Shown: positions 4,290 to 46,804 of the stretch, piece by piece
Layout of the letters: each line of letters starts with the position of its first letter
Position numbering within the stretch: the first letter of the stretch is position 1
NCBI GenBank assembly: GCA_964647725.1
Contig: CAZYJI010000001.1
Coordinates: 74,264-138,263 of the forward strand
Direction: 5' to 3'
DNA: 64,000 nucleotides
From: an uncultured Alphaproteobacteria bacterium
GTDB lineage: Bacteria; Pseudomonadota; Alphaproteobacteria; SHNJ01
The notes under the pieces: model-generated
Databases searched by the model: none
Told to the model about the DNA's origin: nothing
What the model saw: the letters and a program-made list of their open reading frames with translations, nothing else
Program-made: the position numbers and the translations under genes

Positions 4290-5209
4290 TAGACTAACTC
4301 GGCCTTTGCCGGAATTTTAAATCCGCGCAAAAATTCTTGTCTGGTCATCGGTTGTTTGCCCGGGCGTTGCAGGATAAGGGGCAATAAAACGCCTTGTCCG
4401 GTTGCGATATTCAGATCATCATCCATCACCGCGCCAACCTTACCACTGCCCGTATTGACAATATCGGCGCTGAAGATTTTAATCCGCTCGCCGTTATATT
4501 CGAAATGCGCACCGGGAAATGGGGCCAATGCCCGAATTTGCCGTTCGATTTCTGCCGCGCTTTTGGTCCAATCGATTTTGGTGTCTTGTTTGGTTATTTT
4601 ATGCGCATAGGTCGCCAAAGATTCATTTTGCTTTTCGGCCTTCATCTGGCCGCCTGCAATTTTCGGCAAATATTCGACAATCATTTCCGCGCCCAATTTC
4701 GTCAATCTTTCGTGTAATTCGCCGAACACCATTTTATTGTCGATCGGAATGGATTTTTGAATGAATACCGGGCCGGTATCCAATCCTTTTTCCATTTGCA
4801 TTAAACCAATGCCTGTTTCGGTATCGCCTGCCCAAATCGCGCGTTGAATCGGCGCTGCGCCGCGCCAACGTGGCAATAACGATCCATGAATATTGATGCA
4901 GCCCATTTTGGGCGCATCCAAAACCGCTTGCGGCAATAATAATCCATAGGCCGCGACCACGGCGATATCCAAATTGAAATTCTTGAATTCGGCCTGTACA
5001 TCAGCTGATTTTAAATTTTCGGGATGCAGTACCGGAATATTTTTTGATTCGGCGTAAACATGCACTGGTGATTTTTGCAATTGCTGGCCGCGTCCTGCCG
5101 GGCGGGGCGGTTGGGTGTATACGATAACGGGCGTCATGCCCGCACCTATCAAAGCGGCCAAGGATTTTTGGGCAAATTCTGGCGTGCCCATGAAGGCGTA
5201 ACGGATCAT
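4289..5209 (-). CDS. fmt: Methionyl-tRNA formyltransferase
   Basis: N-terminus MIRYAFMGTPEFA and a formyltransferase core (NIHGSLLPRWRGAAPIQRAI). Adjacent to def, the conserved def-fmt arrangement. Confidence 0.9.
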   Translation of the reverse strand: MIRYAFMGTPEFAQKSLAALIGAGMTPVIVYTQPPRPAGRGQQLQKSPVHVYAESKNIPVLHPENLKSADVQAEFKNFNLDIAVVAAYGLLLPQAVLDAPKMGCINIHGSLLPRWRGAAPIQRAIWAGDTETGIGLMQMEKGLDTGPVFIQKSIPIDNKMVFGELHERLTKLGAEMIVEYLPKIAGGQMKAEKQNESLATYAHKITKQDTKIDWTKSAAEIERQIRALAPFPGAHFEYNGERIKIFSADIVNTGSGKVGAVMDDDLNIATGQGVLLPLILQRPGKQPMTRQEFLRGFKIPAKAELV

Positions 5210-32030: not shown

Positions 32031-32051
32031 TGGTGCCGGAAGAGGACTCGA
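32031..32051. repeat. attL-like direct repeat (copy of tRNA-Leu 3' end, 1 indel)
   Basis: Sequence tggtgccggaagaggactcga matches 46718-46740 apart from one missing C. Confidence 0.75.
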
Positions 32052-32324
32052 TTAAGGCGTCTAAACTATTGATATTTATCATGATAATAGTATGATAAAT
32101 ATATAGTACCCCCACCGATACCCCCAGTAACATTAGCTGCCAGTATGGCACCAAGTTCTGGCAAGGCAGTAAACATCATGGGGTTTTGAAAGTCAATTTG
32201 TATCGGCCTTTTTTATTTTATCACCCCACCCCCGTGGCAGGAGGGGGGCGGGCAAAATCACTTTCCTGCCACCGATCTACAAAGCATCCCGCGAGGATTT
32301 TTAAAATTTTAAAATTGGCCTGCG

Positions 32325-32750
32325 ATGGAACAGATGACCGACTTCCCCTACCGTAGATTCGTTCAAATACCGATGCAACTGGTCATGTGCCACGACATGC
32401 ACGGCTCGGCCATGAAAACTTACGGTGCTCTATGCCTATTCGCGAATAAGAAGAACATATGCTGGCCCTCCATCCACACCCTCGCCCGCATCACAGGACT
32501 TTCTAAACGGCAAATAGCACGGCATTTGAAGGCGCTGGAGAAGAAGGAACTCATCATTATAAAACGGCGAGGTAAAAGCAGAGGCAAGCGCGGCGCAACC
32601 AGTGTCTATAAACTGGCTTTTGATTTTCGTGGCTCTTCCTTCATTTGGCAGCAAATTATGGCGGGCAGGCGACATGTATGGCAGGGAGAACCAAAAACAA
32701 ATCGGAAGACATGCGAATCTGAAGAAGGTTTGGGGGTCGTACACCTCTAA
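32325..32750 (+). CDS. Winged-helix HTH_36-like protein (island replication/regulatory protein)
   Basis: Motif ICWPSIHTLARITGLSKRQIARHLKALEKKELIIIKRRGK, the HTH_36 pattern common in integrative elements. Confidence 0.6.
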   Translation: MEQMTDFPYRRFVQIPMQLVMCHDMHGSAMKTYGALCLFANKKNICWPSIHTLARITGLSKRQIARHLKALEKKELIIIKRRGKSRGKRGATSVYKLAFDFRGSSFIWQQIMAGRRHVWQGEPKTNRKTCESEEGLGVVHL

Positions 32751-32893
32751 ATCATTGATTTACCTTGCAACCGTCGCGCGGGGATGAGTGCGCAGATATA
32801 ACAGCCTGTATTTGCCATTTTGTTGCTGTGTCCGCTCTGTACTCTTCCCATGCTCCTCCCATTCTTTCTTAGAAGTTAAGGGGCACAAGTAAA

Positions 32894-33160
32894 TTATTTT
32901 TTCTCAGTCAACGCTAGCAGTTCTTCCAGTTTTTCGGGATAGTCCAGGCCGAGAAAGTGTAGATAATCTAGAAACTCGAGCGCATCCATTCTGCGCTCGA
33001 ATCGCTCTATCTTTGACAATTGCCATTGGCCCAGGCCGGTCTGTTCGGCGATATCATTTTGCTTGATTCCCTGTTTTTTGCGCTCTTCCACCAGCCAATT
33101 GAGCAGGCGGCGGTAGCGCTTATCGTAAATCGTTGCAATCCTTGATTTTGTCTTGGCCAT
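32894..33160 (-). CDS. XRE-family HTH transcriptional regulator (island repressor candidate)
   Basis: HTH region LVEERKKQGIKQNDIAEQTGLGQWQLSKIERFER. Start taken at the internal Met (MAKTKS). Divergent from the lipoprotein operon. Confidence 0.65.
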   Translation of the reverse strand: MAKTKSRIATIYDKRYRRLLNWLVEERKKQGIKQNDIAEQTGLGQWQLSKIERFERRMDALEFLDYLHFLGLDYPEKLEELLALTEKK

Positions 33161-33232
33161 ACCCCTAGGGTTGCATGCCATTATAGCATATGCCAAAATA
33201 GCCAATATTTCACATAAATACGGGGTTAAATT

Positions 33233-33844
33233 ATGATTAGAGCAATAACTTTGGCGGCTATCTTATTATTAAGCGGATGCGTAACCACGCAGCGTTACGC
33301 GCAAAACTACACAACTATTGGCGAAGATCAGCAGGTTTGTGAACAGATTAATAAAGGTTTTCCGGAAATGGTGGATTGCCTCAATGAAAAAGTGACCCTT
33401 AAAGCCACGCAGCGAGGGCCGGATGTTGACTTGCAGCTGGCATATGTCACTAGGGCGCGCGCACTAGCGCAGAAAGTGCGCGACGGAAAGATTAGTGATA
33501 GCACCGCGCGCAAAACATTGGCCAAAGAGAAAGTTATCTTAGACGATCGCCTGGCCGAACGGCAAAATCAATATTATGAATCGCAACGACAAAAAGCGGC
33601 TGCGCCGGTACCAACCAACACTGACAATTTAGCTATTTTAAACTGCATTCAGGCCGCCAATTTAATTCCAAGATCGGGCGTAGGAGGTCCGGCTGCCGCT
33701 ATTGCTTCGTGCCACGAGAATCCTTATCGAGCAGAAGATAGATTTCAGCGGGAAAAAGAAGATATGGATCGCCGAAATCGAAAAATGATATGCAAGCCAG
33801 ATTACGCCGGTAAAGCTTTAGAATGTAGTGAGGAACCATTTTAG
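33233..33844 (+). CDS. Hypothetical Cys-rich lipoprotein
   Basis: Lipobox LLLSGC at residues 12-17 and several paired cysteines in the mature part. First gene of a three-gene + strand module. Confidence 0.55.
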   Translation: MIRAITLAAILLLSGCVTTQRYAQNYTTIGEDQQVCEQINKGFPEMVDCLNEKVTLKATQRGPDVDLQLAYVTRARALAQKVRDGKISDSTARKTLAKEKVILDDRLAERQNQYYESQRQKAAAPVPTNTDNLAILNCIQAANLIPRSGVGGPAAAIASCHENPYRAEDRFQREKEDMDRRNRKMICKPDYAGKALECSEEPF

Positions 33845-33846
33845 CC

Positions 33847-34089
33847 ATGACACGGAATCTAGTTTATGTTCCCGCCTCTTGTTACGATAAGAAAATATCT
33901 GAAAATTTAAAGTTAGCCCTTCTAAATTTGGCAAACCTTAAGCCTGAAGACTTGAAGCGCTTTACTTTCGTGGAAAGAATGATTCTTATCGACGAAGCCT
34001 TCTATGCCCTTAAGAAAGGAGTCTATAATAGGCTCGATGTTCTATCAGATGAAACAAACCAAAAATATGGTGCTCACGCCATTAAATAA
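33847..34089 (+). CDS. Hypothetical protein (80 aa)
   Basis: ORF 3 nt downstream of the lipoprotein gene. No recognisable motif. Confidence 0.4.
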   Translation: MTRNLVYVPASCYDKKISENLKLALLNLANLKPEDLKRFTFVERMILIDEAFYALKKGVYNRLDVLSDETNQKYGAHAIK

Positions 34090-34188
34090 CGTCTTGGATC
34101 AAGCCAACCCTGAACTCCAGAAATGCAATAGTAATGGCGATCTAAAACCATTTCCCTTATACTATTTGAAAATGTGCTTAGGTGAGCA

Positions 34189-35520
34189 ATGGAAACAAAG
34201 AATTCTTCCGCGCATTCTCAATGCCCTTTAGCCGCTGTTGATAAGCGGCTTGAAGATGCCCATCGGCTTTGGCACCAAGCAGAACAATCTTATTTTGATC
34301 CTGAAGCTTTTCGGTTGGCAGCTCAGAACACCATACAGACTCTGCGCACCGTTTCTTTCGTTCTGCAAAATCATAAGCGGACAATACCAGACTTCGATCA
34401 ATGGTATGGCTCGCAACAAGAAAAGATGCGTGCCAATCCGTTACTGCGCTGGATAGTGGAAGCTCGCAATAAAATTGAGAAACAAGGCGATCTTGAATCG
34501 CATAGCTTAGTTCGAGTGGAAACCATCGCCTCATATCTCGATAATGGCCCAAGCATTGAAATTCCCTTTGATCTTTTTTCTCCTTCCACTCCAGCTCTCC
34601 TTCGGGAAAGCATCCCCAAAACTCCATTAGGCGATTACATAGTTAAATATGGGTCTTTGCGCATACAACGGCGGTGGGTTGAAAACAGCTTGCCCGATTA
34701 CGAACTCCTTGACGCATTGGCCATCGCTTATGGTCATATGTCCGAACTAGTTCATGACGCTCATCGTCAAATGAGCCTACCGCCGCCTAGCGTTATTAAC
34801 TGTGACGGCACTAAGGAGTTTACGTCACCCATGTTAAAGGGGAGGATGCCGTGCATGATAGGCCATCATGATCCGCGCTCTCTTATTATTTCACTAAAAG
34901 ACGGTAAAATTTTAGAATTTGAACGCAGAGGAATGATTTCTGATACGAAGATCGCGGAAATCGCTTCTGAACGTTATGAGATTGGTCCCGATAATTTCAA
35001 AAAGAATGTAGCTAACATAGAAGAACTAGCAGCAATGTATTTTCAAATTGCTCGTACGCTATTTCTAAAAGATGGTTATCACATAGATACGCTATTGTTT
35101 ATACGCGACATTAAAGTAATTAGTATGTGCGAAATTAGGATGGATAACTCACGACAGAACTATCATATTATGCGCAAAATGGCGGATGAAGCTACTCGTA
35201 TCGGAGCTGACGCCGCCATAAGAATAAATGAGATATGGGCGGCTCCCGCCAATGAATTGAGCCAGTATCAACGACCAGCTGAATATGTAGGTCGCAAGGA
35301 AGGACTCGCCTTATTTTTGGTAGGGAAAACAGGGCATCCTATTCATTTTTACGCTGACATAACAAGAAAAGAAGGTAAGGCAAGTCTCGGAGATACAGTT
35401 ATTCATCACGGTGGCGCCCCTTTCATTTTTGCACCTTTTTATCAAGCATGGGGACGTACAATACCTACAGAGTGGGAGACTCTTGAGGAAACGATGGAGG
35501 GGCTTAATAAGCAATCGTAA
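34189..35520 (+). CDS. Hypothetical protein (443 aa), uncharacterized island cargo
   Basis: Long ORF with no motif I can recognise. Cytoplasmic, with no TM or signal peptide. Confidence 0.55.
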   Translation: METKNSSAHSQCPLAAVDKRLEDAHRLWHQAEQSYFDPEAFRLAAQNTIQTLRTVSFVLQNHKRTIPDFDQWYGSQQEKMRANPLLRWIVEARNKIEKQGDLESHSLVRVETIASYLDNGPSIEIPFDLFSPSTPALLRESIPKTPLGDYIVKYGSLRIQRRWVENSLPDYELLDALAIAYGHMSELVHDAHRQMSLPPPSVINCDGTKEFTSPMLKGRMPCMIGHHDPRSLIISLKDGKILEFERRGMISDTKIAEIASERYEIGPDNFKKNVANIEELAAMYFQIARTLFLKDGYHIDTLLFIRDIKVISMCEIRMDNSRQNYHIMRKMADEATRIGADAAIRINEIWAAPANELSQYQRPAEYVGRKEGLALFLVGKTGHPIHFYADITRKEGKASLGDTVIHHGGAPFIFAPFYQAWGRTIPTEWETLEETMEGLNKQS

Positions 35521-35530
35521 TAAATTAATT

Positions 35531-35995
35531 TTAGGCCGCTTGCGCCGCTTCAATTTCAGCGAGATCCATTGCGAAATCAAAAACTATCTGGATTGGTTCC
35601 GCTTCCACATGCGCATCGTTGTAGCTGTCCACATCAGTTTTAAGTTGACGACAGTCTCCCACTATCGCTTGCCGTCTTTGCTGAAATGATATTTGCATAT
35701 GGTGTCTGGGAGCTGTGCGAATATCATCCCAAAGCACCATTTGTTCATCACCTTTGCGCGTAGAAGCAGGATGCAAGAGCCTTACACGACGCCCTTTTTT
35801 ATCCGTGATATATTCTTCACGCATAGCTGAAGCTACATCTTCCGCGCATTTGCTTATTGCGGCAGAAGCTGGAAGCTCCCAACGACCAGTGCGAATAGCC
35901 CAGGCCGCAATTGTTTTTGCAGCAGCAGGCCAAGGCTCACCCGAGCCTCTGTAGTCCTCAACAATTTTCTGCATTTGTTTAGTATATGTTGCCAT
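35531..35995 (-). CDS. Hypothetical protein (154 aa), downstream of higA-peptidase fusion
   Basis: ORF 10 nt after the HigA-like gene on the same strand. No motif recognised. Confidence 0.4.
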   Translation of the reverse strand: MATYTKQMQKIVEDYRGSGEPWPAAAKTIAAWAIRTGRWELPASAAISKCAEDVASAMREEYITDKKGRRVRLLHPASTRKGDEQMVLWDDIRTAPRHHMQISFQQRRQAIVGDCRQLKTDVDSYNDAHVEAEPIQIVFDFAMDLAEIEAAQAA

Positions 35996-36005
35996 AAGTG
36001 CTCTC

Positions 36006-37142
36006 CTATATGTTTATTGGTCCTGTGTGGCCATATCCGTCGGTAAGTGCGGACTGAATTATAATATGCCGTACTTTTAATTGATGCCTTCTGAATAAAT
36101 CCCATCGTTCCGTGCGCCTTTGTAACTGGCCAGCTACTATGCCTGGATGACGCTTAATTAGGCGCGCAAATCCAATCAAATTCTTTTCTGAATACATTGG
36201 ATCAAGACGAGCTATGAAATGCTTTATTTCTTTTTCCGGAACACAAAAATTACTAGCCGCTTGATTAGCTGCTTTTTCACAATCATTTGTATTGGAAGCA
36301 GGCTCATTTGCTTCAAACTCATCCACCATAATAGAATCTTTGCCATCCCCTCTAAGTACATGCTCAATCTCATGCCGAAGGGTAAACCAAAACCTATCTA
36401 TATAGTCTCCTTTAAGAGAGAGACCTATTACGGGAGAGTGTGCGTTCAGCCAGAAACACACCCCATCAATCTTTGATCCAGGAATAGGTTCTACTATTAC
36501 AAATCGTACCCCACATTCAGATAAAATCCCAGGAATGTGGCGCGCTTCTTCTGGCTCCGTCATTAGTAATTCAAGATTAACTAAAGCAGAACGCAATTTC
36601 TGTTCATTATATTTAGGAATTTGTAACGCAGTTGCCAAATGTTTTACACGAAAAATCCATGCGAGCTGTGCTGAGGAAAGATTCTCACTATAATTTCTCC
36701 GCGCGGCATGGGATAATTTCGGCATGTCATCTAAGGATGTAATACCAAAGAAATCAAGAACCCTAGTTTCTATTACTTCAAAGTTTTTTGAAGACTCAAT
36801 CCAGCCGCGCTTTATCATTTCTCGAACTGGAAATTTTTCACGAAGTTGGGCTTCTTTCCTAATTCTTTCAGGAACAGGATCGACGCGCGATAGTTGATAT
36901 GCAGATTCAAGATTGAGCCAAAATTCCGCACTAGTGCCAAATGCAGCAGCGATCGCTTGGGCTGTCTCCGGAGTGATGCCGCGCTTACCACTTATAATTT
37001 CGCTAATTAAGCGTGGCGGACGACCGATAATTTCGGCAAATTCTCCCTGATTCCAACCGCGCGCTTCTAGCTCGTCATGAAGATATTCTCCTGGTGGAAA
37101 TATCTCTGCTGGTTTTCTTTGTTTCATGGGTCTGTCTCTCAT
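36006..37142 (-). CDS. higA: HigA-like XRE HTH antitoxin fused to ImmA/IrrE-type (COG2856) zinc metallopeptidase domain
   Basis: N-terminus PGEYLHDELEARGWNQGEFAEIIGRPPRLISEIISGKRGITPETAQAIAAAFGTSAEFWLNLESAY matches the HigA family. The C-terminal domain carries an HEIEH zinc-binding motif. Confidence 0.7.
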   Translation of the reverse strand: MRDRPMKQRKPAEIFPPGEYLHDELEARGWNQGEFAEIIGRPPRLISEIISGKRGITPETAQAIAAAFGTSAEFWLNLESAYQLSRVDPVPERIRKEAQLREKFPVREMIKRGWIESSKNFEVIETRVLDFFGITSLDDMPKLSHAARRNYSENLSSAQLAWIFRVKHLATALQIPKYNEQKLRSALVNLELLMTEPEEARHIPGILSECGVRFVIVEPIPGSKIDGVCFWLNAHSPVIGLSLKGDYIDRFWFTLRHEIEHVLRGDGKDSIMVDEFEANEPASNTNDCEKAANQAASNFCVPEKEIKHFIARLDPMYSEKNLIGFARLIKRHPGIVAGQLQRRTERWDLFRRHQLKVRHIIIQSALTDGYGHTGPINI

Positions 37143-37147
37143 AATAA

Positions 37148-37477
37148 TCAGTGATAATCTGTAATTTCTATAACTCTAATCGTTTTCATCAGGGCGGTTT
37201 CATGCACTTCAATAATCAGCCGCCATTGATCATTTATCCTCAACGAATATTGATGCTTACGATCACCTTGCAATTTTTTAAAACGGAGGCCCCTTAATTG
37301 ATGCAAATCCTTTTCATCAGCAACGGCTCGAATAGCCTGCATGACTTTTCGGAACCCTTTGACTATCGGCTGGGAGAAGCCAGCCGTAAATTTCGGATCG
37401 GTTTCTAGTCGATCTAAATCAGCATCATCAAATTCAACTTCCATTTTCTTTATACCCTGTTTTTTTGGAATTGTCAA
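37148..37477 (-). CDS. higB: HigB-like RelE/ParE-superfamily toxin (plasmid maintenance system killer protein)
   Basis: C-terminal region GDRKHQYSLRINDQWRLIIEVHETALMKTIRVIEITDYH, typical of HigB. It sits upstream of its antitoxin with a 5-nt gap, the reversed TA order that is the HigBA hallmark. Confidence 0.7.
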   Translation of the reverse strand: MTIPKKQGIKKMEVEFDDADLDRLETDPKFTAGFSQPIVKGFRKVMQAIRAVADEKDLHQLRGLRFKKLQGDRKHQYSLRINDQWRLIIEVHETALMKTIRVIEITDYH

Positions 37478-37591
37478 GTACGAAATTACACATAATGTAA
37501 AAATGATATATTGTAAATAAAAATATAATCCATATATAACAATATGTTAATCATGTATTACTGCATAGAGGGGGCAAAAAAGTGGTGAGCT

Positions 37592-38701
37592 TTAAGCTTT
37601 TGGACTTGCCACAATGGTTTTATCGTAGCCAGGGAATTTCTGCTTTAATCTTTCGACTGTCGCCCGCCATTTAGGTTTTGTAGGCTTACACACAGTGTTT
37701 TGATTACCAAAAAAACCTATTTCCTTAATTGCTTTTTCCAAAGACACGGCTTGAATCCATTCGATAGGCACGAAATATTCGCAGCGCTCAGGATCGTCCA
37801 AATATTCACGATGATAGCTGGCTCGTTTTACAACATCTAGCACTGGCATTTTGCCCTGGGAGGTGTCTACTTGGAATGTTGCGGCGGGCTGGACTCGGCC
37901 AATAGCGCGACCGACCCCAACATATCCAGAGCCGGGTATATTCACCCAAACACGGTCGCCGGGGTTAAGCAGTTGTAGGGTTTTGCTATACCATCTACCG
38001 CCCCCGCCACAAATGAATCCATATTGTACAGCATCCGCCCAAGACCGCACCTCACTTTCACCGAACGATGAATAAAATTCACCGTTCCAAGGTTCGCTTT
38101 GGTTATCCGGTGCAGTGGCGGCGCTAATTTGAGTTTGGGCCGGGTCTAACAACCAGGCGCGGCTTAGCAATTGATCGTCACCATAATTAAAAACCTGAAA
38201 GCAAACTACATTGATTGGAATATCGCGCTCGCTAAGATAGGCAATTATGCGTTCACTGCTTTCATCTATAGCCGAAGCAACCACAATAATTTGGTGGCTT
38301 TCGTTTAAAGATTCTTCATCCAATTCCTGGTTAAAACGCTTGTGGAAATCTTCCGCAAGATTGCCGCCTTTAGTAAACCGACTATAAATAGCATTGATAT
38401 TCTCGGGTTTTAATTTAGAAACCCAGCTTGCATAGTCAATCGCCTGCGCAACAACTTCGCGCGGGGTGCGGTCTCTCTTTAATTCTATCAATATCAGCAC
38501 GCCATCCGGCGCAATTGCCAATAAATCGATTCGCCCACCATAACCGGTGTCTTCTTGCCGACCAATAAACATCCAATTTTCGTCTAATATCCTAGGATCA
38601 GCAAGAATCATGTCTTCCAGCAATCTTTCGCTGGGCAGAATCGCCTCGATCAATGGCTGGGGTTGTTGACCAACTTTCCAAATGGCATGACGAATGGGCA
38701 T
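37592..38701 (-). CDS. NucS-like PD-(D/E)xK nuclease domain fused to PUA/EVE-like domain (candidate modification-reading nuclease)
   Basis: N-terminal half GGRIDLLAIAPDGVLILIELKRD is the NucS/RecB-type D...ExK core. C-terminal half GDRVWVNIPGSGYVGVGRAIGRV...YFVPIEWIQAVSLEKAI resembles the EVE/PUA-like fold. Lies 5 nt downstream of the MmeI-like gene. Confidence 0.5.
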   Translation of the reverse strand: MPIRHAIWKVGQQPQPLIEAILPSERLLEDMILADPRILDENWMFIGRQEDTGYGGRIDLLAIAPDGVLILIELKRDRTPREVVAQAIDYASWVSKLKPENINAIYSRFTKGGNLAEDFHKRFNQELDEESLNESHQIIVVASAIDESSERIIAYLSERDIPINVVCFQVFNYGDDQLLSRAWLLDPAQTQISAATAPDNQSEPWNGEFYSSFGESEVRSWADAVQYGFICGGGGRWYSKTLQLLNPGDRVWVNIPGSGYVGVGRAIGRVQPAATFQVDTSQGKMPVLDVVKRASYHREYLDDPERCEYFVPIEWIQAVSLEKAIKEIGFFGNQNTVCKPTKPKWRATVERLKQKFPGYDKTIVASPKA

Positions 38702-38706
38702 GAGTT

Positions 38707-41700
38707 TTAGCCCGCTGCTTCTGGCAAGAAACTAATTTTATCTATTTCTTGCATAGTTTTTGCGGTTTCGGCTAGCGCCACAATTATGCGCTGCCAATGA
38801 CGAATGTCTTCAATAGTCAATTTTCGGTCTTTTCGGTCTTTCAGCCATTTTTGTGCAGGCTGATAACCGCCAATATAAAAATCCCAGGCTTCTTGTGGCA
38901 CATTGCCAAAGTATTGAGAGTCATTAATCCATACTTTGCCTTTTTCAAAACGTTGTTTTTTAACTTCATGCAGCCCATCAACCGGATATGTGGTAATTTG
39001 AGTATCCAATCTTGGACTTTCCATTAAATGCAACTCACGCAAATAAGCGCCTTTCTCTGCTAATCCATGAAAAATCTTAGTGTTCGTTGGGTAAGGAATA
39101 TAAGGAAAGTCTGACTTCAAAAACTCAGCATAGCGCTTACGATAGGTGGGGCTGTGGAGTACTGCATAGACATAATCAAACAAAGCCTCTGGCGTGGTGT
39201 CAGGAACTGTTTTCTTGATTTGGCCGAAGATTTTAGGATCGAGATTGGGTCTTCTTTGTTCTTTGCTTTGAAGCCCTTCCCCATAAAGCCAAAGGGGATA
39301 ATATAAACAAATACCTTTATTGCTGATGAAGGTACGGTTATCAATTAGTTCTCTACTAACAAAGCTATAACAATAATCCGGCACATTGTAGGCATAGTGT
39401 CTCATACTCAACAAACCGAGATTCTCTCCCGCACAAAAGTGGCGCATGACTTCTGGTCTAGGCATACATAGGAAACCACGAGATTGCCCCGTGTAATAAG
39501 TCCAGCGCGTATCGAAAGGTCGATAGCTAATAGCTCTGATATTATCAGGATTTAAGCCAGTATTCTTCAAATCATTCTGCGCCCACTCCACCCGCCAATC
39601 TCGCACATCCTTACCCAAATTGTATTCTTGGCGCGCATCTTCTATTGGCAGCATGCTAAAATTTTGAATGGTACGGATAAGATCATCGCGCTTTTCATGA
39701 ATAGTCAATTCATCCCGCGCCGTAACGATACCAACGGAATTGATGGGGAACAAAACATTCAAGGCAAAGCCTTTGTGATATTCAGCGCCTGATTTGTTAT
39801 CTTGGGGAATAAAAAAATAAAACGGCGCACGTAGAACCAGTTGTTTAAATGGCAGTTTGTTAATGCTGCCTATTTGTAGTGCATCATATTTGTTTTCGCG
39901 GCTGCCCCATAAATCGGCATGAAAAACCCTAGCTAGTTGCTTTTGTGTTTTTCCAGTTGGTTTGGCCTTAACCGCGATAATTATTGCTACTCCTTGTTGA
40001 ATATCAAACACATTCTTATCAGGCTTGCCATCAGGGGATGTTTCTTTTTGCTTTGCATTACCGTGTAAATCCAGAACATAGATATCATCAAAAGTGTTCA
40101 GTAAATGCCAGCGCATACCACGAAAAGTAGGATTATTTAGATATCCATGATTGGTTATATAAGCCAAAATTCCTTCCGCATTTTTTTGTATATAATGCTC
40201 TCCGAGACGTATGAATTTTACATAATCATCATTTAGCCATTTGGAGTTTCTTTCTTTAAGCTTGCCCCCGCTAGGCTCCTGTTTATATGCATTCATCAAG
40301 CCCATAATCCAATCACCCTTATTGGCACTTTCGCCACTATAGGGAGGGTTGCCGATAGCCACCATAATAGGCATATCTTTTTTGATGCGGCTGGCTTCGT
40401 TAGCTTCCCGGGATAGCCAGTTGGCAAACAAGGTATCAACATCAGGGTGGTACTCTTCAAGACTGTTCGTTAGATAAACACTTAAGCGCGGAGGATTATT
40501 GGCGTTAGATGGCTTGTAACCGGTTTCCTGTAGCAATAGATCTAGCTTCATATGACACATAGCATAAGAAGCCATTAACAATTCAAACCCGTGCATGCGC
40601 GGCAACAAATCGCGCTCAATATAGCTGCTCCATAAACCCTCTTGTCCTTGGAATTTTTTATAAATTTGTTTAATGATTTCGGCTAGGAAAGTGCCGGTGC
40701 CTGTGGCTACGTCCAGAAGCTGAACTTTATGTACTTCACGCACTTCCATTTTGCGACCAGTTTTAGTTCGTTGATCTTTTTCTTGTGATTCTATTTCAAT
40801 ACTAACTTTACTGGTATCAGCCAGCCCGTCTTTAAGATTAAAATGTTTTTTCAACACATCATCAACGGCACGAACAATAAAATTCACTACTGGTTCCGGC
40901 GTGTACCATACCCCCCGCGCCTTACGGAGGGACTTATCGTATTCCGCGAGAAAAGTTTCATAAAAATGAAGGATGGGGTCGTTCTGTCCCGTGGCTGTCC
41001 CGAAATCATGCAGGATAGATGGAAGATCGGTATAGCGATACACCTCGCACAGTGCGTCGATAATCCAAATAACGCGATCATCTAATTCAGGGCCGGCTAT
41101 ATAATGAAATAATTGTCTTAGAAATGGATTGCTTTTAGGGATTAAGGTCAAGGCCTCTGCGCGGGAAAAATCATGTAAGCTTTTATCATGTAAACGTGCA
41201 GTAAATAAACCATAAGTGATCGTTTGGGCATAGACATCTGCAAATTGTTTCGCATCCATGTCATGAACTAGTACTTTCTGAAATGCCGTTAATTGATCAT
41301 GTAGGGAGGTGTTCTCATTGCTTTCCAAAAGAGCTTTATGAAATACATCACGCATTAGGCGCGCTTTACGCGCCATCATCTCGGCCAATTTTTTAGCCGA
41401 TTTAATCGTTTGGCCTTGGAAAGCAGCAAAATCAATCAAGTGGTCTTTGAGACGATTATAATTTTCAGGTATCGAATTAATTTTCCCAGACGGGCCTATT
41501 TCGCCTATCCGGATCGTTTCAACTTTTTTGCCGTGCAAGAAAAATCGAAATTCAAGATAGTCCGTTAGAATCAAATTATCTAAGCTATCAAAATAACGCT
41601 TTAGTTGATCGTCTTTCTCGGCTTTATCTAGATTGATCCCTATATCTTTAGCCTCGATATAACCAACATCAATTTTACGTCGGGTCAAAATAAAATCAGG

Positions 41701-41856
41701 CGCGCCGCATTCGATACGTTTAGGATCATTTGTCGCCATAACATCCGGCATAATAGCTTCGACAAGGATTTGTAATGCTGGACGGTAAGCATGCTCCCCC
41801 GCTATGCCGGAAGCGTGGCGCTTTTTAAGATCGTCAACATATATATTGAAGGGCAT
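38707..41856 (-). CDS. MmeI-family type IIL (type IIG) restriction-modification enzyme, single-chain endonuclease + N6-adenine MTase + TRD
   Basis: 1049 aa. N-terminal PD-ExK motif (APDFILTRRKIDVGYIEAKDIGINLDKA...YF) parallels the MmeI D70/E80/K82 region. MTase motif I is LLDVATGTGTFL and motif IV is NPPYSG. The long C-terminal region is consistent with a TRD. Confidence 0.72.
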   Translation of the reverse strand: MPFNIYVDDLKKRHASGIAGEHAYRPALQILVEAIMPDVMATNDPKRIECGAPDFILTRRKIDVGYIEAKDIGINLDKAEKDDQLKRYFDSLDNLILTDYLEFRFFLHGKKVETIRIGEIGPSGKINSIPENYNRLKDHLIDFAAFQGQTIKSAKKLAEMMARKARLMRDVFHKALLESNENTSLHDQLTAFQKVLVHDMDAKQFADVYAQTITYGLFTARLHDKSLHDFSRAEALTLIPKSNPFLRQLFHYIAGPELDDRVIWIIDALCEVYRYTDLPSILHDFGTATGQNDPILHFYETFLAEYDKSLRKARGVWYTPEPVVNFIVRAVDDVLKKHFNLKDGLADTSKVSIEIESQEKDQRTKTGRKMEVREVHKVQLLDVATGTGTFLAEIIKQIYKKFQGQEGLWSSYIERDLLPRMHGFELLMASYAMCHMKLDLLLQETGYKPSNANNPPRLSVYLTNSLEEYHPDVDTLFANWLSREANEASRIKKDMPIMVAIGNPPYSGESANKGDWIMGLMNAYKQEPSGGKLKERNSKWLNDDYVKFIRLGEHYIQKNAEGILAYITNHGYLNNPTFRGMRWHLLNTFDDIYVLDLHGNAKQKETSPDGKPDKNVFDIQQGVAIIIAVKAKPTGKTQKQLARVFHADLWGSRENKYDALQIGSINKLPFKQLVLRAPFYFFIPQDNKSGAEYHKGFALNVLFPINSVGIVTARDELTIHEKRDDLIRTIQNFSMLPIEDARQEYNLGKDVRDWRVEWAQNDLKNTGLNPDNIRAISYRPFDTRWTYYTGQSRGFLCMPRPEVMRHFCAGENLGLLSMRHYAYNVPDYCYSFVSRELIDNRTFISNKGICLYYPLWLYGEGLQSKEQRRPNLDPKIFGQIKKTVPDTTPEALFDYVYAVLHSPTYRKRYAEFLKSDFPYIPYPTNTKIFHGLAEKGAYLRELHLMESPRLDTQITTYPVDGLHEVKKQRFEKGKVWINDSQYFGNVPQEAWDFYIGGYQPAQKWLKDRKDRKLTIEDIRHWQRIIVALAETAKTMQEIDKISFLPEAAG

Positions 41857-42022
41857 TATATCTGTGCCATGAGGTTATAATTTGTCAGAAACAATAATAC
41901 TCACGACAATTAATCGCAACAATAATTAACGTAATATTGGCTTCAATAATGTAATTAAGCTTCTGCCTGAAGATCATTACGTTCATTGCTCGGTGGGCAC
42001 AATTTCTATTGCCGATAGATAG

Positions 42023-44128
42023 TTAATTCTTTTCTTTCTGGGCTTCGCTTTCTGCAACTGAACGTTTTTGTTCCCCACAAAACTCACGAATGGCAGCGCG
42101 TTCTTCATATTCGTATAATGATCCATTGCTGGATTTAGCCGCCACAGCGCCACATGCAAGGTTCTCAAAGCTTTCTTGTGTTGCGGGGGCAGTCATTTGA
42201 GATTTATTGGGGACAGTTTCCGCCACGTCCCATTCGTCAGAAAGCGTAGGTTGTGGCGTTGTGGCGGCTGGAGCCTGCCCTCCCTCTAAATAACGCGCAA
42301 AAGCATCTGAGAATTGTGAAATCTCATATCCTTTAGGAGTGTTATAACTATCCAGTCTGACGGTCTTACTTTTAATCCCAAATGGCTTTAATATCATAGC
42401 TACATGGTTCGGGGTTATTGGCTTGTCACGCTTCCAACTCACCCATGGGCGTTCTTCATCTCTGCATAGAAAATCAATCAGAGAGACGGTTGAAATTTTA
42501 TCTCCCAGAACTTCAAAAGCAGCCTTGATGTCCCGAAGCATTTCTGTACCTACACTGGTGACATCTGGCCCTTCTTTTGACAAAGCAATAGCCGCATCAA
42601 AAGCTTTCTTTTGCCACCGGCTTCCTGCCAGAAACGCAATTGCAAGTAAAGGTTCCCAATTATCCGCACCACGGTCTGATAAACTATCTGGTAAAACCGG
42701 TTTGAGTGATGAAAGTGCCTGAATACTATCATCCGCCAGCCTTTTTAGTTGCGATCTAAACTTCTCAAATGAATCTTGGTTTACATCGCGTAATTTCTGC
42801 ACTTTTTCCGATTTTAATTTGCGGCGTAACTCAATGATAATTGACCGGTCACGTAGCGTATCATAAAGATCCCCGATTAAAGCAATAACCTTTGCTCCCC
42901 AAGTACTGAATTTTTTGGGTTCATGCTCATCCCCGACTGAACGAATGACAAAAGCAGTGGTGCGCGTATGCCCAGAATTAATAATGCCACGCAATTCATC
43001 TTTGCCTGCCAGAAAAGTATCAGCTTCGTCTATTAAAAGAGTAGGTTTACATAATTCAATTGTGCGAAACATTGCTGCGGGAGTTATATTAGCGGCAGGA
43101 AGCGGCTTGTTTACTAACCCATTAATTGCGGAAATTAAAGAAGTTTTTCCACACCTTTTTTCTGGGGAGCAGATAGCCAAAATTGGCGCAGTATGAAAAG
43201 CATCAATTACCCAAGTAAACAACACCCATAAAGTTACCGCAGTTTTGCTGTGTTTTGAAAGTATAACAAGAGAATCTATTATTGTAGCTATCTCATCAAA
43301 TAGCGCTGCGGCATCAACAGGTTCTGGCCATGGCTCTATTTCGGGAAAATCAAAGCCGCCTCTATTATGCTGACTTTGGGGAAATATGCGTTGCTCTTTG
43401 ACTTCTTGATCTAAGACAGATCTTCGTATTCCCAAACTAGCAGCATGTCGTGTTCTGACCCGGTCATATTCGATAGGTGATAAAGCGGCCAACTGACGTA
43501 CAATATTGGCTAGATTAATTTCTTCATTGTTAGCAAGTGTCGATATTAAGGGCGCATTTTCAACCCAATCCAAAAGATTTTTTTCCTGAAACTCAAATGG
43601 AAGTAAGTCAGCTAAGTCCCATTTCGGAGGCAAGCCTTCAGGCAACTGAACGATTCTAATTGATTTAGCCCCAATTGTGGCAAGTTGGTTGACTATAATT
43701 GAAGCATATTTTTTCCCTGCTTCATCGTTATCGGGCCAAACGACGGTGTCTCGCCCAGCTAAAGTTGACCAGTCAGTTTTATGCGCAGCTTGAGAGCCGA
43801 AGCTACTTGTTACAATAACACAGTGAGGAAAAAATCTTCTGGCTGCTTCTGCCGCTTTCTCACCTTCCACAATAATTACTAGCGCATCGTGTTTTTCAAT
43901 AATTTCAAGCAGATTATACAGCGGGCGCAATTCTGGAGCTTTAATTATCCAACGGCCATCTAGGAATGACCATGGCCTAAATTCTTTCTCTTCTTTGCCG
44001 CTAGTATTAACCTTGTTATAGCGCGTCACTACAAACGATAACTCGCCTCTTGCATCAAAATATTCCCATGCGCCAGCAAACTCTCCAATTTTAGGCTGCT
44101 GAAGCAGCTTTGAATAATCTTTTGTCAT
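42023..44128 (-). CDS. TOPRIM primase / P-loop NTPase (P4-alpha-like, DUF3987-type) replication protein
   Basis: TOPRIM acidic motifs (IIVEGEKAAEAA, VVWPDNDEAG) in the N-terminal 150 aa. Walker A (PEKRCGKTSLISAI) and Walker B-like LLIDEADTF in the central domain. Confidence 0.7.
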   Translation of the reverse strand: MTKDYSKLLQQPKIGEFAGAWEYFDARGELSFVVTRYNKVNTSGKEEKEFRPWSFLDGRWIIKAPELRPLYNLLEIIEKHDALVIIVEGEKAAEAARRFFPHCVIVTSSFGSQAAHKTDWSTLAGRDTVVWPDNDEAGKKYASIIVNQLATIGAKSIRIVQLPEGLPPKWDLADLLPFEFQEKNLLDWVENAPLISTLANNEEINLANIVRQLAALSPIEYDRVRTRHAASLGIRRSVLDQEVKEQRIFPQSQHNRGGFDFPEIEPWPEPVDAAALFDEIATIIDSLVILSKHSKTAVTLWVLFTWVIDAFHTAPILAICSPEKRCGKTSLISAINGLVNKPLPAANITPAAMFRTIELCKPTLLIDEADTFLAGKDELRGIINSGHTRTTAFVIRSVGDEHEPKKFSTWGAKVIALIGDLYDTLRDRSIIIELRRKLKSEKVQKLRDVNQDSFEKFRSQLKRLADDSIQALSSLKPVLPDSLSDRGADNWEPLLAIAFLAGSRWQKKAFDAAIALSKEGPDVTSVGTEMLRDIKAAFEVLGDKISTVSLIDFLCRDEERPWVSWKRDKPITPNHVAMILKPFGIKSKTVRLDSYNTPKGYEISQFSDAFARYLEGGQAPAATTPQPTLSDEWDVAETVPNKSQMTAPATQESFENLACGAVAAKSSNGSLYEYEERAAIREFCGEQKRSVAESEAQKEKN

Positions 44129-44355
44129 TTTCTTGCTCCCGGGTCGTTAATTAAGCCCAGTTTCTGTAAGGATATTTTTACTTCAACTTGCGAACAACCA
44201 GCAAAACAATGCCAAAGCAGTTTCCCATTTTTTTCCGCGATAGACAAAGAAGGGGATCTATCATTATGAGCGGGGCAACAAGCTTTGCCACGCTTGCCAT
44301 CCCATTGGCCTTTTAGTTTAAGAGTTACTTCTTCTGCGCTATATTTTTTACACAT
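44125..44355 (-). CDS. CHC2-type zinc-finger protein (primase zinc-binding domain, separate ORF)
   Basis: Motif CPAHNDRSPSLSI...WHCFAGC matches the DnaG-type CHC2 zinc ribbon. The stop overlaps the TOPRIM gene start (ATGA). Confidence 0.6.
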   Translation of the reverse strand: MCKKYSAEEVTLKLKGQWDGKRGKACCPAHNDRSPSLSIAEKNGKLLWHCFAGCSQVEVKISLQKLGLINDPGARK

Positions 44356-44401
44356 GATAATCCTTCATGTCGCTGTGCACTGCAACGCTATCGGCATTTC
44401 T

Positions 44402-44620
44402 TTATTGATTGCTGACAGCAACAGAATTTAGGAATTTCTGGATATCAGATACGCGCCACGCAGTAATGCGTTCGCTTAGCTTGACAGGTTTTGGGTATCG
44501 GCCGGTTTTTATGCCTTCCCAGAAGGTCGATTTGCTAACCGGTATAAGCTTTAAAACGTCCGGCAGCCTTAAATAGCCGTCATTATCAAGGGTATTATTG
44601 GTTTTCATAGGTTGCTCCAT
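44402..44620 (-). CDS. alpA: AlpA-family phage regulatory protein / excisionase-like DNA-binding protein
   Basis: Motif YLRLPDVLKLIPVSKSTFWEGIKTGRYPKPVKLSERITAWRVSDIQKFL matches the AlpA/prophage CP4-57 regulatory family. Confidence 0.75.
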   Translation of the reverse strand: MEQPMKTNNTLDNDGYLRLPDVLKLIPVSKSTFWEGIKTGRYPKPVKLSERITAWRVSDIQKFLNSVAVSNQ

Positions 44621-44703
44621 CCAGTTGAATCTGGTTGGATTCTATGAGAGCCGTGATAGGCCCTGGGCGAATTCGCCTAAATAAAAAGCGAATTCGCCTT
44701 TTA

Positions 44704-45345
44704 TTATTCTTTGGATTCTTCTGCTATATACTCCACTGACGCATCAGCATGTTTTCTTATAGTTCCATCATCCATGGAAAACCCACAGGCTTGAATACGG
44801 TTACTTATTTTCCCTACAGCCTCTCTGCTCGGATAACCATAATGGCTTTTCAAAATACAGCCCAAAATTTTCATAAGCGATTTATTTTCTTTAGCCAAAG
44901 AGGCTTGATTTACGATTTTTTGTAATTGCTCTTTAAGCTTTTCATTCTCTTCCATTAAAACATTGCATTGGGCTTTGTAATCTACAGCGGATAATTTCTT
45001 CTTTTCATATGCGGCCATCAATGCTTTCGGAGGCGCGATGCCCCTCTGTATTAGCCAGTCAACAAATTTTATGGCTGAAACAAGCCCTATTTGCTCCTTG
45101 AAAATATTATCTCCAGACCTTTCCATAACCCTCAAGAGTTTTTGTGAGTAACTAGGAAGCTGGCTAGGATAATTAATCACCTTAGTGCCATAAGGATTTA
45201 GATTTATATTATCTTCATCTGGATTATGCCCATATGCCAATAACGCTGCTTCGGAAAGACTCCAATAATCCGAGGCCATCCAATCTTCGTAATTTATGTT
45301 ATGATGAAAAGTATCCAATACTTTAGTTTCGTCAAATTTAGGCAT
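44704..45345 (-). CDS. Hypothetical coiled-coil protein (213 aa)
   Basis: ORF between alpA and int with a central coiled-coil (QCNVLMEENEKLKEQLQKIVNQ). Confidence 0.45.
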   Translation of the reverse strand: MPKFDETKVLDTFHHNINYEDWMASDYWSLSEAALLAYGHNPDEDNINLNPYGTKVINYPSQLPSYSQKLLRVMERSGDNIFKEQIGLVSAIKFVDWLIQRGIAPPKALMAAYEKKKLSAVDYKAQCNVLMEENEKLKEQLQKIVNQASLAKENKSLMKILGCILKSHYGYPSREAVGKISNRIQACGFSMDDGTIRKHADASVEYIAEESKE

Positions 45346-45346
45346 T

Positions 45347-46570
45347 TTATGAGACCCTTTTTCTATTCTTAAATGCTACTACGCGGCCAGTATCAGCAAT
45401 AACCGAATCAACATAATCCGCCCATTGCTGCATCATCTTCTTCCGCTCTGGCAAATATTCAGCGCGGTTATACGCGGCGCGGACACTATTGCGCTCTTTA
45501 TGCGCTAGCTGCCGCTCTATTACATCCGGTTTAAAGCCAAGTTCATTCAATGTGGTAGAAGCAAGCGCGCGGAATCCATGGCCCACCAGCTTTCCTTTAT
45601 AGCCCATCCTTTGCAGCACTTGATTAATTGCGTTTTCGCTTATCATTGGATTTTTTCGCCGTTGGTAAGATGGAAGCAGCAGCTCAGAGCGTCCCGTTAA
45701 TTTTCTCAATTGTTGCAAGAGTTTTATGACTTGTTTGGAAAGCGGTACGATGTGCTCTCTGCGCATTTTTGTGGCATGAGCTGGCATAATCCAGACATTG
45801 TCTTTGAAATCAAAATCCGTCCATTTAGCGTGGCGCAGTTCGCCCTGCCGAACAAATGTAAAAAGCAGAATTTTAATAGCCAGCCGGATTTCTTCTGCCG
45901 TGCCTACAGTTTCCAGCTTGTGCCAGAGTTGAGGGATTTCTTTCGCATTGATGGTTGGATAATGACTCGCCTTATGAGCTTTAAGCGCTCCCCGCAAGTC
46001 AGCCGCAGGATTATATTCGGTGCGACCGGTTGCGGTAGCATATCGAAAAATAACCGAACAGGTCTGCAACACACGATGCGATAACTCTGTTGCATCCCGT
46101 TTTTCTACCTTCCGTATAACGTCCAGTAATTCGACAGGTTTAATGTTTTTGACCGGCACATGGCCAAGAAAGGGAAATATATTGGCTTCTAAGCGCCTCA
46201 AAATCTTGGCGCTATGCGCTTTTGTCCATTGGACTTGATTGGCTGCATGCCACTCCAAGGCAATAGCTTTAAAGCTATTATTGGCGTCAAATTGCGCCAT
46301 ACGCTTATCTTCGCGCCGTTTTAGGCTTGGATCAATTCCATTAGCTAGCTGTTTCCGCACTTCCAGGCGCTTTTCCCGCGCTTCGGATAGGCTAACTTCG
46401 GGATAGGCCCCAAAGGTCAAAAGCTTCTCTTTACGATGGTAGCGGTACTTAAAGCGCCAGATTTTCGAGCCTTTAGGGGTCACATAGAGAAATAACCCTT
46501 CTCCATCCGCAATCTTTTGGGGTTTGGCTGTCGGCTTGACATTACGAATTTTGGTGTCGGTGAGGGCCAT
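45347..46570 (-). CDS. int: P4-type tyrosine integrase (DUF4102 N-terminal + phage_integrase catalytic domain)
   Basis: N-terminus LTDTKIRNVKPTAKPQKIADGEGLFLYVTPKGSKIWRFKYRYHRKEKLLTFGAYPEVSLSEAREKR is the DUF4102 arm-binding domain. The C-terminus has the R...HxxR...Y catalytic pattern (HGFRALASTT...RAAYNRAEY). Confidence 0.88.
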   Translation of the reverse strand: MALTDTKIRNVKPTAKPQKIADGEGLFLYVTPKGSKIWRFKYRYHRKEKLLTFGAYPEVSLSEAREKRLEVRKQLANGIDPSLKRREDKRMAQFDANNSFKAIALEWHAANQVQWTKAHSAKILRRLEANIFPFLGHVPVKNIKPVELLDVIRKVEKRDATELSHRVLQTCSVIFRYATATGRTEYNPAADLRGALKAHKASHYPTINAKEIPQLWHKLETVGTAEEIRLAIKILLFTFVRQGELRHAKWTDFDFKDNVWIMPAHATKMRREHIVPLSKQVIKLLQQLRKLTGRSELLLPSYQRRKNPMISENAINQVLQRMGYKGKLVGHGFRALASTTLNELGFKPDVIERQLAHKERNSVRAAYNRAEYLPERKKMMQQWADYVDSVIADTGRVVAFKNRKRVS

Positions 46571-46717
46571 AAGGATATCCGTTTATACCCCCAACGATAC
46601 CCCCAAATGTGCCGGATGTCAACCGACCCCCTCGGACATCAGCGGACGTAAAAACCTTATTTTATCTATGTTAAAATGATTCTGTCGGATGTCATCGGAC
46701 ATCCTCGGAGGGAGTAA

Positions 46718-46804
46718 TGGTGCCCGGAAGAGGACTCGAACCTCCAAGATGTTACTCACTGGTACCTGAAACCAGCGCGTCTACCAATTCCGCCATCCGG
46801 GCGC
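46718..46804 (-). tRNA. tRNA-Leu (anticodon CAG)
   Basis: Minus-strand read: GCGCCCGGAUGGCGGAAUUGGUAGACGCGCUGGUUUCAGGUACCAGUGAGUAACAUCUUGGAGGUUCGAGUCCUCUUCCGGGCACCA. It has a 7-bp acceptor stem, an anticodon loop UUCAGGU (CAG), a long variable arm, GGUUCGAGUCC in the T-loop and an encoded CCA. Confidence 0.85.

Follow-up and report, generated by a model that had tools for sequence, protein, structure and literature searches.

The tandem locus and its large restriction-modification protein

We analyzed two adjacent genes in a 64,000-nucleotide stretch of DNA (the window) from an uncultured member of the Alphaproteobacteria (GenBank assembly GCA_964647725.1, contig CAZYJI010000001.1, positions 74,264 to 138,263). 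The larger gene encodes a single-chain restriction-modification (R-M) enzyme of Type IIL/IIG, and the smaller one, directly downstream, encodes a member of the family PDC-S11 (phage defense candidate, single gene 11). Read from the window sequence, the two open reading frames (ORFs) occupy 38707..41856 (1049 aa) and 37592..38701 (369 aa). Their coordinates, common strand, and 5-nt spacing had been given in an earlier description of this DNA made from its letters alone (here called the original prediction) and were confirmed, the strand being minus. Both genes belong to catalogued families, and their slightly unusual pairing is one instance of a known habit rather than a new two-gene system. 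The features of the two genes are as follows.

38707..41856, minus strand: single-chain Type IIL/IIG R-M enzyme, DrdV-like, 1049 aa (PADLOC, Pfam, and PDB matches; plasmid homologs)
41647..41706, minus strand: PD..ExK nuclease motif, A52-P-D54-F ... Y66-I-E68-A-K70-D71 (D54, E68, and K70 conserved in 74-75 of 77 homologs)
39907..40989, minus strand: gamma-class N6-adenine methyltransferase (MTase) region, about aa 290-650 (Pfam N6_Mtase and Eco57I; alignment to the LlaBIII and DrdV MTases)
38749..39753, minus strand: target-recognition domain (TRD) at the C terminus, aa 702-1036 (Pfam Type_ISP_C, 5.8e-86, profile positions 2-341 of 342)
38702..38706, minus strand: intergenic spacer of 5 nt, ...GGC TAA AACTC ATG... 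(direct sequence read)
37592..38701, minus strand: PDC-S11 family protein, 369 aa, predicted NucS-like nuclease plus EVE/YTH-like reader (PADLOC PDLC04916; AlphaFold model)
38129..38701, minus strand: N-terminal PD-(D/E)xK nuclease domain, aa 1-191, resembling the NucS C domain, with predicted catalytic residues D59, E73, K75, Q86, and Y90
37622..38092, minus strand: predicted C-terminal PUA-like domain of EVE/YTH type, aa 204-360, beta-alpha-beta-alpha-4beta, with invariant W205, W221, and W315

Inspection of the junction revealed no terminator-like hairpin between the two genes. Because the gap is only 5 nt and lacks a terminator, co-transcription is plausible, and we consider that the two genes are probably transcribed together. 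Chance ORFs were excluded for both by strong family matches (1088 bits in PADLOC for the large protein and an E value of 6.6e-157 for the small one) and by conserved motifs. The GC contents of the two genes differ modestly (46.2% vs 41.5%), a difference that is not decisive on separate acquisition. The peptides by which the genes had been recognized are present in the translations, namely, PDF, GYIEAKD, VATGTGTFL, and NPPY in the large protein and GGRIDLLAIAPDGVLILIELKRD, GDRVWVNIPGSGYVGVGRAIGRV, and FVPIEWIQAVSLEK in the small one, except that the quoted DLDKA reads NLDKA.

The 1088-bit match of the large protein was to the PADLOC model REase_MTase_IIG (PDLC03610). In Pfam at E<=0.01, it matched Type_ISP_C, N6_Mtase, and Eco57I and no other family, and no helicase or ATPase domain was matched. 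In an alignment of 77 homologs, P53-D54, E68-x-K70, MTase motif I (D382-x-A-T-G-T-G-T-F390, DVATGTGTF in the window enzyme), and motif IV (N503-P-P-Y506) were kept in at least 74 sequences, and all are intact in the window enzyme. Judged from its sequence, the large protein is thus a self-contained nuclease-MTase-TRD enzyme, as had been proposed, and its functional class is that of the MmeI-like Type IIL/IIG enzymes. Full-length plasmid homologs share about 50% identity with it, and plasmid homologs at 34-36% identity include the Borrelia lp25/lp56-type enzymes.

The proposed membership in the MmeI family, on the other hand, was not upheld. The closest solved relatives in a phmmer search against the PDB were LlaBIII (2.1e-35), DrdV (6.4e-35; query residues 378-943 on DrdV residues 335-896), and LlaGI (4.3e-32); MmeI was not among the matches at E<=0.01, and the N-terminal 360 residues had no PDB sequence match except at the start of the MTase. 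By these alignments, the sequence lineage of the large protein is that of the DrdV and Type-ISP-like MTase/TRD enzymes and not that of the MmeI family. The architecture is nevertheless like that of MmeI (N-terminal PD..ExK nuclease, gamma-class N6-adenine MTase, C-terminal TRD, and no translocase), with the window motifs at residues 53-70, 382-390, and 503-506 and the TRD at 702-1036, although neither Pfam nor PDB phmmer detected sequence membership at E<=0.01. Enzymes of the class to which MmeI belongs are single chains that deposit N6-methyladenine (m6A) on one strand and cleave at a distance (10.1101/2021.01.06.425610).

DrdV (PDB 7lo5) resembles the window enzyme in size (1029 vs 1049 aa) and in the order of nuclease, connector, gamma-class MTase, and TRD, although sequence alignment hardly extends to the N-terminal nuclease and the connector. 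This architecture was named Type IIL in the DrdV report, in which the MTase and TRD of DrdV were described as sharing an origin with those of LlaGI and LlaBIII (10.1101/2021.01.06.425610). The latter two Type ISP enzymes have the MTase and the Type_ISP_C TRD in common with the window enzyme and gave best PDB sequence matches, but their RecA-like translocase is absent from the window enzyme, which is about 350-530 aa shorter (1049 vs 1406-1578 aa); the LlaBIII alignments start at residue 844 and cover MTase-TRD residues 844-1525 only. We also observed that PGAP names family members of about 1,050 aa, the Borrelia plasmid enzymes included, "type ISP restriction/modification enzyme." This name is misleading for enzymes built in this way, because the translocase that defines Type ISP is absent; it reflects the shared TRD and not the mechanism.

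The PDC-S11 protein and its C-terminal domain

The 369-aa protein matched the PADLOC PDC-S11 profile PDLC04916 almost from end to end (520 bits; residues 1-357 on profile positions 1-355 of 358), and a second PDC-S11 profile, PDLC04915, matched at 2.3e-82. The family is large, comprising 4,386 cluster representatives at E<=1e-3. We infer that it has spread by horizontal transfer, because identities of about 70% are found across distant phyla and the distribution is patchy. Homologs bear the annotation "endonuclease NucS" or "MmcB family DNA repair protein."

The nuclease half aligned to the catalytic domain of NucS (PDB 2vld, E 5.6e-5). D59, E73, K75, Q86, and Y90 face identical residues of the NucS chain and are invariant across 126 PDC-S11 family members, so that the D..ExK..Q..Y constellation of the NucS catalytic domain is present in the 369-aa protein, and the NucS-type PD-(D/E)xK core recognized in the original prediction was borne out. 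The resemblance is confined to this half: only chain residues 122-207 of 251 were aligned, the score against the NCBIfam NucS equivalog was 31.2 bits (cut-off, 216), Pfam NucS_C reached 22.2 bits on the whole protein, under its cut-off of 24, and no match to the NucS N-terminal domain was reported in the Pfam search of the 369-aa protein. On these profile scores, the protein is a member of PDC-S11 and not a NucS orthologue. As a candidate of another kind, the "END nucleases" were considered and rejected, since they combine a PLD domain with an inactive EndoIII and form a different family.

For the C-terminal half, the isolated last 168 residues gave no relevant Pfam match (EVE, YTH, ASCH, or SRA) even at E<=10, and an hmmsearch of the PDB with the 126-sequence family profile matched no PUA-like chain. 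An AlphaFold prediction from 46 homologs, all about 70% identical, gave a pLDDT of 47. The alignment was then widened through relatives of 31% and 38% identity, representing two divergent subfamilies, and the resulting model (pLDDT, 86.4) has two domains joined by a disordered linker at residues 192-203. Fold searches with this model gave matches that include m6A-binding YTH domains and VcaM4I, with separate matches for the nuclease; the probabilities in Foldseek were 0.9-0.99. Because whole-model searches give no aligned ranges, these fold matches were assigned to the C-terminal domain by way of the target sizes, the topology, and the separate nuclease matches. Furthermore, residues 208-286 run through beta, alpha, beta, alpha, and four beta elements, which is the EVE signature given in PMC7641849. 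The model thus points to a PUA-like fold of EVE/YTH type in the C-terminal half, in line with the original prediction.

W205, W221, and W315 do not vary in the 126-member alignment, in which Y238, F276, and F331 show at least 90% conservation. The three tryptophans are candidate cage residues for a flipped modified base. Besides, the C-terminal domain of PDC-S11 recurs in fusions with three other effectors, a Swt1-like HEPN RNase, a NOV_C nuclease of PD-(D/E)xK type, and a Ser/Thr kinase (P0473, P0436, and P0434; metagenomic gene calls). The fusions to HEPN_Swt1, NOV_C, and the kinase fit a mobile sensor module and may represent a wider set of sensor-effector defense proteins built on an undescribed PUA-like domain.

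Taken together with the nuclease half, this domain arrangement suggests that PDC-S11 is a modification-dependent, Type IV-like restriction endonuclease. Modification-dependent enzymes with PUA-superfamily sensors follow a sensor-plus-nuclease scheme (PMC12191111), and among the fold matches, VcaM4I, one of the Type IV enzymes that join a nuclease to a reader of this superfamily (EVE, SRA, YTH, or ASCH), is the closest architectural analogue. It differs in carrying a C-terminal HNH nuclease where PDC-S11 has an N-terminal NucS-type PD-(D/E)xK domain, and the putative reader of PDC-S11 is too divergent for the Pfam models. We found neither a domain description nor a mechanism for PDC-S11 in the accessible literature. 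With respect to the PADLOC family, the end-to-end hidden Markov model match is the same and its embedding in R-M loci was reproduced independently here (see below); what is added here is the EVE/YTH-type fold of the C-terminal half, at the level of a model.

Linkage to R-M operons and the surrounding island

The original prediction had proposed a possibly undescribed two-gene module, and we therefore surveyed gene neighborhoods from both sides. The PDC-S11 side comprised 80 species-level loci with homologs of 60-72% identity from Chloroflexota, Acidobacteriota, Planctomycetota, and many Proteobacteria, and the side of the large (IIG) enzyme comprised 80 metagenomic loci, of which 63 were informative (at least 1.2 kb of downstream sequence), plus 4 plasmid loci. 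A full-length relative of the window IIG enzyme occurred at none of the 80 PDC-S11 loci, one of which had a partial C-terminal match, and the other window neighbors were likewise found at none of the 80. Conversely, PDC-S11 lay downstream of the IIG gene at 0 of the 63 informative metagenomic loci and was not a neighbor at any of the 4 plasmid loci. Thus, the specific pair of IIG enzyme and PDC-S11 is not a conserved module, and the module proposal is not supported: the small protein belongs to a catalogued family and the pairing is unconserved. In the closest IIG relative (68% identity), a DUF1883-TIR gene lies 35 nt downstream (contig SWBZ01001028.1, locus L093, 8203-8985), which matched PADLOC PDC-S66 at 1.3e-69 and also ThsB-like models. 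Because this relative has a TIR gene there, we regard the slot behind the IIG gene as a variable position for single-gene defense cargo.

In 2 of the 80 IIG loci, a distant DUF91/PDC-S11-like gene was observed immediately upstream of the IIG gene (L123, 77-1111; L148, about 3860-4420). The L123 gene matched PADLOC PDC-S11 at 1.2e-20, in the nuclease half only. These sequences hint that independent pairings of NucS-like nucleases with the IIG lineage occur occasionally.

While linkage to IIG relatives was not found, the survey uncovered a broader association. Type I hsd genes lay within 10 kb at 38 of the 80 PDC-S11 loci, and in about 30 of the 80 the order hsdR-hsdM-hsdS-S11 was found on one strand, mostly with PDC-S11 11-38 nt after hsdS. 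In roughly 40% of the species sampled, PDC-S11 closes an m6A R-M operon. The remaining 42 loci were free of hsd within 10 kb, with neighbors that include MutS, IcmF, and amylase genes. We considered whether the Type I linkage goes back to a single inherited event, and this is partly so: of the 30 loci with full linkage, 23 have HsdM proteins of a single lineage, in which divergence is about as great as in PDC-S11 (median identities of 61% for HsdM vs 65% for PDC-S11; r = 0.48). At least six further loci, however, carry unrelated Type I lineages, and at least seven distinct HsdM lineages were counted overall. Among the closest PDC-S11 relatives of the window protein, one lies 15 nt behind an M-S fusion gene (P0004, 17 contigs), another adjoins a SNF2 helicase and a very large Eco57I-type methylase, and a third is located in a TIR/AAA island. 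An E. coli example lies behind an IS1-truncated hsdS in an island at tRNA-Arg that also encodes an integrase and a TOPRIM primase; blastn of the window gene against E. coli genomes matched five genomes, and the same search with a Klebsiella-type homolog gave no match. PDC-S11 thus has a strong and recurrent association with m6A R-M operons of several kinds, at the 3' end of which it lies.

Several other contexts were noted besides these. On plasmid pDrdI of Deinococcus wulumuqiensis NEB 479 (L082, 8001-9107), the gene for a 41%-identical PDC-S11 comes after those for a protein exceeding 2,400 aa and a SNF2-related helicase, in the same orientation, and is closely followed downstream by Type I M and S genes; a similar order of PDC-S11, SNF2, and a very large Eco57I-type methylase was seen at another locus (L089). 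From these gene orders, SNF2 with a large methylase may be a second recurrent context of PDC-S11 beside Type I operons. On the Klebsiella IncF plasmid pE16KP0218-1 (L081, 6710-10201), a PDC-S11 of about 31% identity lies between a "PD-(D/E)XK nuclease family protein" gene and a lipase-family gene, with no adjoining R-M genes; this enterobacterial/Providencia context is kept on many conjugative plasmids, including those of 20 Providencia records.

In the window, the pair is cargo of an integrative island of about 14.7 kb at a tRNA-Leu(CAG) gene (window 32036-46802), the GC content of which is 43.2% vs 49.7% for the rest of the window. The features that define the island are as follows.

46718..46802, minus strand: tRNA-Leu(CAG), the island integration site (ARAGORN)
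32036..32051, unstranded: distal att repeat CCGGAAGAGGACTCGA, an exact 16-bp copy of 46724-46739 in the 3' end of the tRNA-Leu gene (repeat search; about 22 bp with one indel)
45347..46570, minus strand: tyrosine integrase (Pfam Phage_integrase, Arm-DNA-bind_3, and Phage_int_M)
42023..44128, minus strand: Toprim/DUF3631 primase-like replication protein, immediately upstream of the IIG gene (Pfam DUF3631, 7.1e-40; Toprim, 4.5e-4, below the Pfam cut-off)

The combination of an integrase with a Toprim/DUF3631 primase recalls, by analogy of organization, the P4-like satellite elements. Directly downstream of PDC-S11, an apparent three-gene cassette on the minus strand was observed at 35531-37477, consisting of a HigB-like toxin gene (37148-37477), a gene for a 378-aa protein with HTH_3 and Peptidase_M78 domains (36006-37142), and, after a 10-nt gap, an unannotated ORF of 154 aa (35531-35995). 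The 378-aa protein matched the PADLOC model PD-Lambda-2_B (1.7e-46) and a TIGR HigA model, and the HigB-like toxin and the 154-aa ORF matched no PADLOC model. On the basis of these matches, the cassette may be a PD-Lambda-2-like variant. The island also bears a plus-strand ORF of 443 aa (34189-35520) with no Pfam, NCBIfam, or PADLOC match, which is possibly another uncharacterized cargo gene.

Two probably complementary defense genes and rival explanations

In E. coli K-12, Type IV enzymes adjoin an R-M system in the hsd-mrr-mcrBC region. The same logic, by which both modified and unmodified invaders are covered, applies to other Type IV enzymes beside R-M or BREX systems, such as BrxU/GmrSD and the EVE/DCD proteins encoded with hsd genes, from which PDC-S11 differs in its nuclease family and in its Type IIL partner. 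Bell et al. described EVE and EVE-like DCD domains in association with hsd operons and in fusions with PD-(D/E)xK nucleases (PMC7641849). Payne et al. nominated the PDC families on the principle of "guilt-by-embedding," the surrounding loci being those of Type I R-M, BREX, and DISARM systems, in which GmrSD and BrxU are embedded as well (GmrSD/BrxU in R-M/BREX); they regarded PDCs as untested candidates and discussed passive explanations (genomic sink, co-transfer, and co-regulation) as well as functional ones (backup and complementary targeting of modified DNA) (10.1101/2024.01.29.577857). The string "PDC-S11" is absent from the supplementary tables of that report. With these precedents, the statement that a modified-base reader/nuclease beside an m6A writer is not a described arrangement was not supported. 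The original prediction was thus right in its domain calls, but its claim of novelty was not borne out.

We consider it rather probable that the locus holds two autonomous, complementary defense genes in tandem on the tRNA-Leu island, an R-M enzyme and a predicted modification-dependent nuclease. The IIG enzyme would recognize an asymmetric site through its C-terminal TRD and methylate one adenine per site with its gamma-class, NPPY-containing MTase, thereby setting the self mark, and its N-terminal PD..ExK domain would cut unmethylated foreign DNA at a fixed distance once several enzyme-bound sites meet. The EVE/YTH-type PUA domain of PDC-S11 would, presumably without help from the R-M enzyme, flip out and cage a modified base that is absent from the host genome, whereupon the NucS-like PD-(D/E)xK domain would cut. 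Unmodified phage DNA would in this manner be covered by the IIG enzyme, and PDC-S11 would deal with phage DNA that is modified or hypermodified and evades R-M. The tandem itself would be one expression of the preference that PDC-S11 generally shows for the 3' end of m6A R-M operons, a placement that would bring co-regulation and co-transfer with no obligate partnership.

Four points weigh against this interpretation. The EVE/YTH assignment has no sequence-profile support and depends on a structural prediction and on fold searches made with the model as a whole. A functionally coupled accessory subunit would likewise be expected to show the short distances to the preceding specificity gene (about 30 loci) and the parallel divergence of PDC-S11 and HsdM (23 loci, r = 0.48). 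The mark that YTH-type domains read, m6A, is the very one that the neighboring enzyme is predicted to write, so that a relation to the partner's mark is possible. Finally, the accessible phage data for PDC-S11 are correlative, in that 9 of 10 Pseudomonas aeruginosa carrier strains were phage resistant (PMC10855318).

One rival, which the original prediction had put forward, is a true two-component system. At the sites written by the adjacent enzyme, the EVE/YTH-like domain would recognize whether the DNA carries m6A or is hemimethylated or unmethylated, and the nuclease would assist, police, or extend restriction. Such a system would accord with the 5-nt gap on the same strand without a terminator, with the place of PDC-S11 immediately after the gene for specificity at about 30 of the 80 loci and beside M-S fusions, this IIL enzyme, and at least seven Type I lineages, with the co-divergence of HsdM and PDC-S11 within the main lineage, and with the m6A-binding YTH domains among the fold matches. 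We nevertheless judge it unlikely. The 42 homologs without an R-M gene within 10 kb speak for a protein that can stand by itself, and the partners are non-homologous kinds of R-M enzymes, for which a conserved protein-protein interface is improbable. Indeed, no relative of the IIG enzyme has PDC-S11 downstream, its closest relative having a TIR gene there instead, and a general m6A reader beside an m6A writer would attack the host's own DNA. Same-strand embedding of unrelated defense genes is, moreover, the rule (96.7% of cases) and does not imply coupling (10.1101/2024.01.29.577857).

A related and likewise unlikely proposal is that PDC-S11 is a dedicated accessory of m6A R-M systems in general, whose YTH/EVE-like domain would read adenine methylation, or its absence, at or near the partner's sites and might license or extend cleavage or punish the loss or inhibition of the methylase. 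Such a role would account for the place of PDC-S11 right after the gene that determines specificity in at least eight unrelated m6A R-M lineages (Type I, M-S fusions, and the Type IIL enzyme of the window), and we assign it a small probability. To the idea that the reader senses modified RNA or a small modified nucleotide, with the nuclease as an abortive-infection effector, we give similarly little credence. In its favor, other proteins combine this C-terminal domain with a Swt1-like HEPN RNase or a protein kinase, m6A in RNA is the ligand of the best-studied YTH domains, and the EVE-containing CoCoNuT systems are predicted to target RNA (PMC11090510); however, NucS-type PD-(D/E)xK domains are DNA endonucleases, VcaM4I, the nearest analogue, is a DNA restriction enzyme, and the family is linked to DNA-modification systems.

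A PrrC-like guard function appears more improbable still. PDC-S11 would here be held inactive by the working R-M system and released as a suicide or backup nuclease when an Ocr- or Stp-like anti-restriction protein disables that system. Its tight position at the operon tail and its embedding in R-M operons, like that of PrrC in EcoprrI (a precedent in 10.1101/2024.01.29.577857), would agree with such a role, but half of the family is solo, and a base-reader domain is a hallmark of direct nucleic-acid sensing and not of protein guarding. That PDC-S11 is a housekeeping NucS/EndoMS-like mismatch endonuclease placed by chance beside an R-M gene is very improbable despite the annotations of its homologs and the conserved NucS catalytic residues, since only the catalytic half of NucS was matched, the NucS equivalog score was 31 bits against a cut-off of 216, the gene resides on a mobile island of low GC content and in other genomes is found on plasmids or within R-M operons, and its patchy distribution with about 70% identity across distant phyla indicates horizontal transfer.

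Under the reading of two autonomous, complementary genes, the pairing in the window is ordinary defense-island stacking. The broader interest lies in PDC-S11 itself, a large, well-conserved, and horizontally mobile family, for which the predicted C-terminal fold, the recombination of this domain with other effectors (HEPN, NOV_C nuclease, and kinase), and the position at the end of R-M operons turn a candidate name into a testable mechanism. If confirmed, PDC-S11 could provide a new reader/nuclease pair for mapping DNA modifications and could help to explain the host range of phages with modified genomes.

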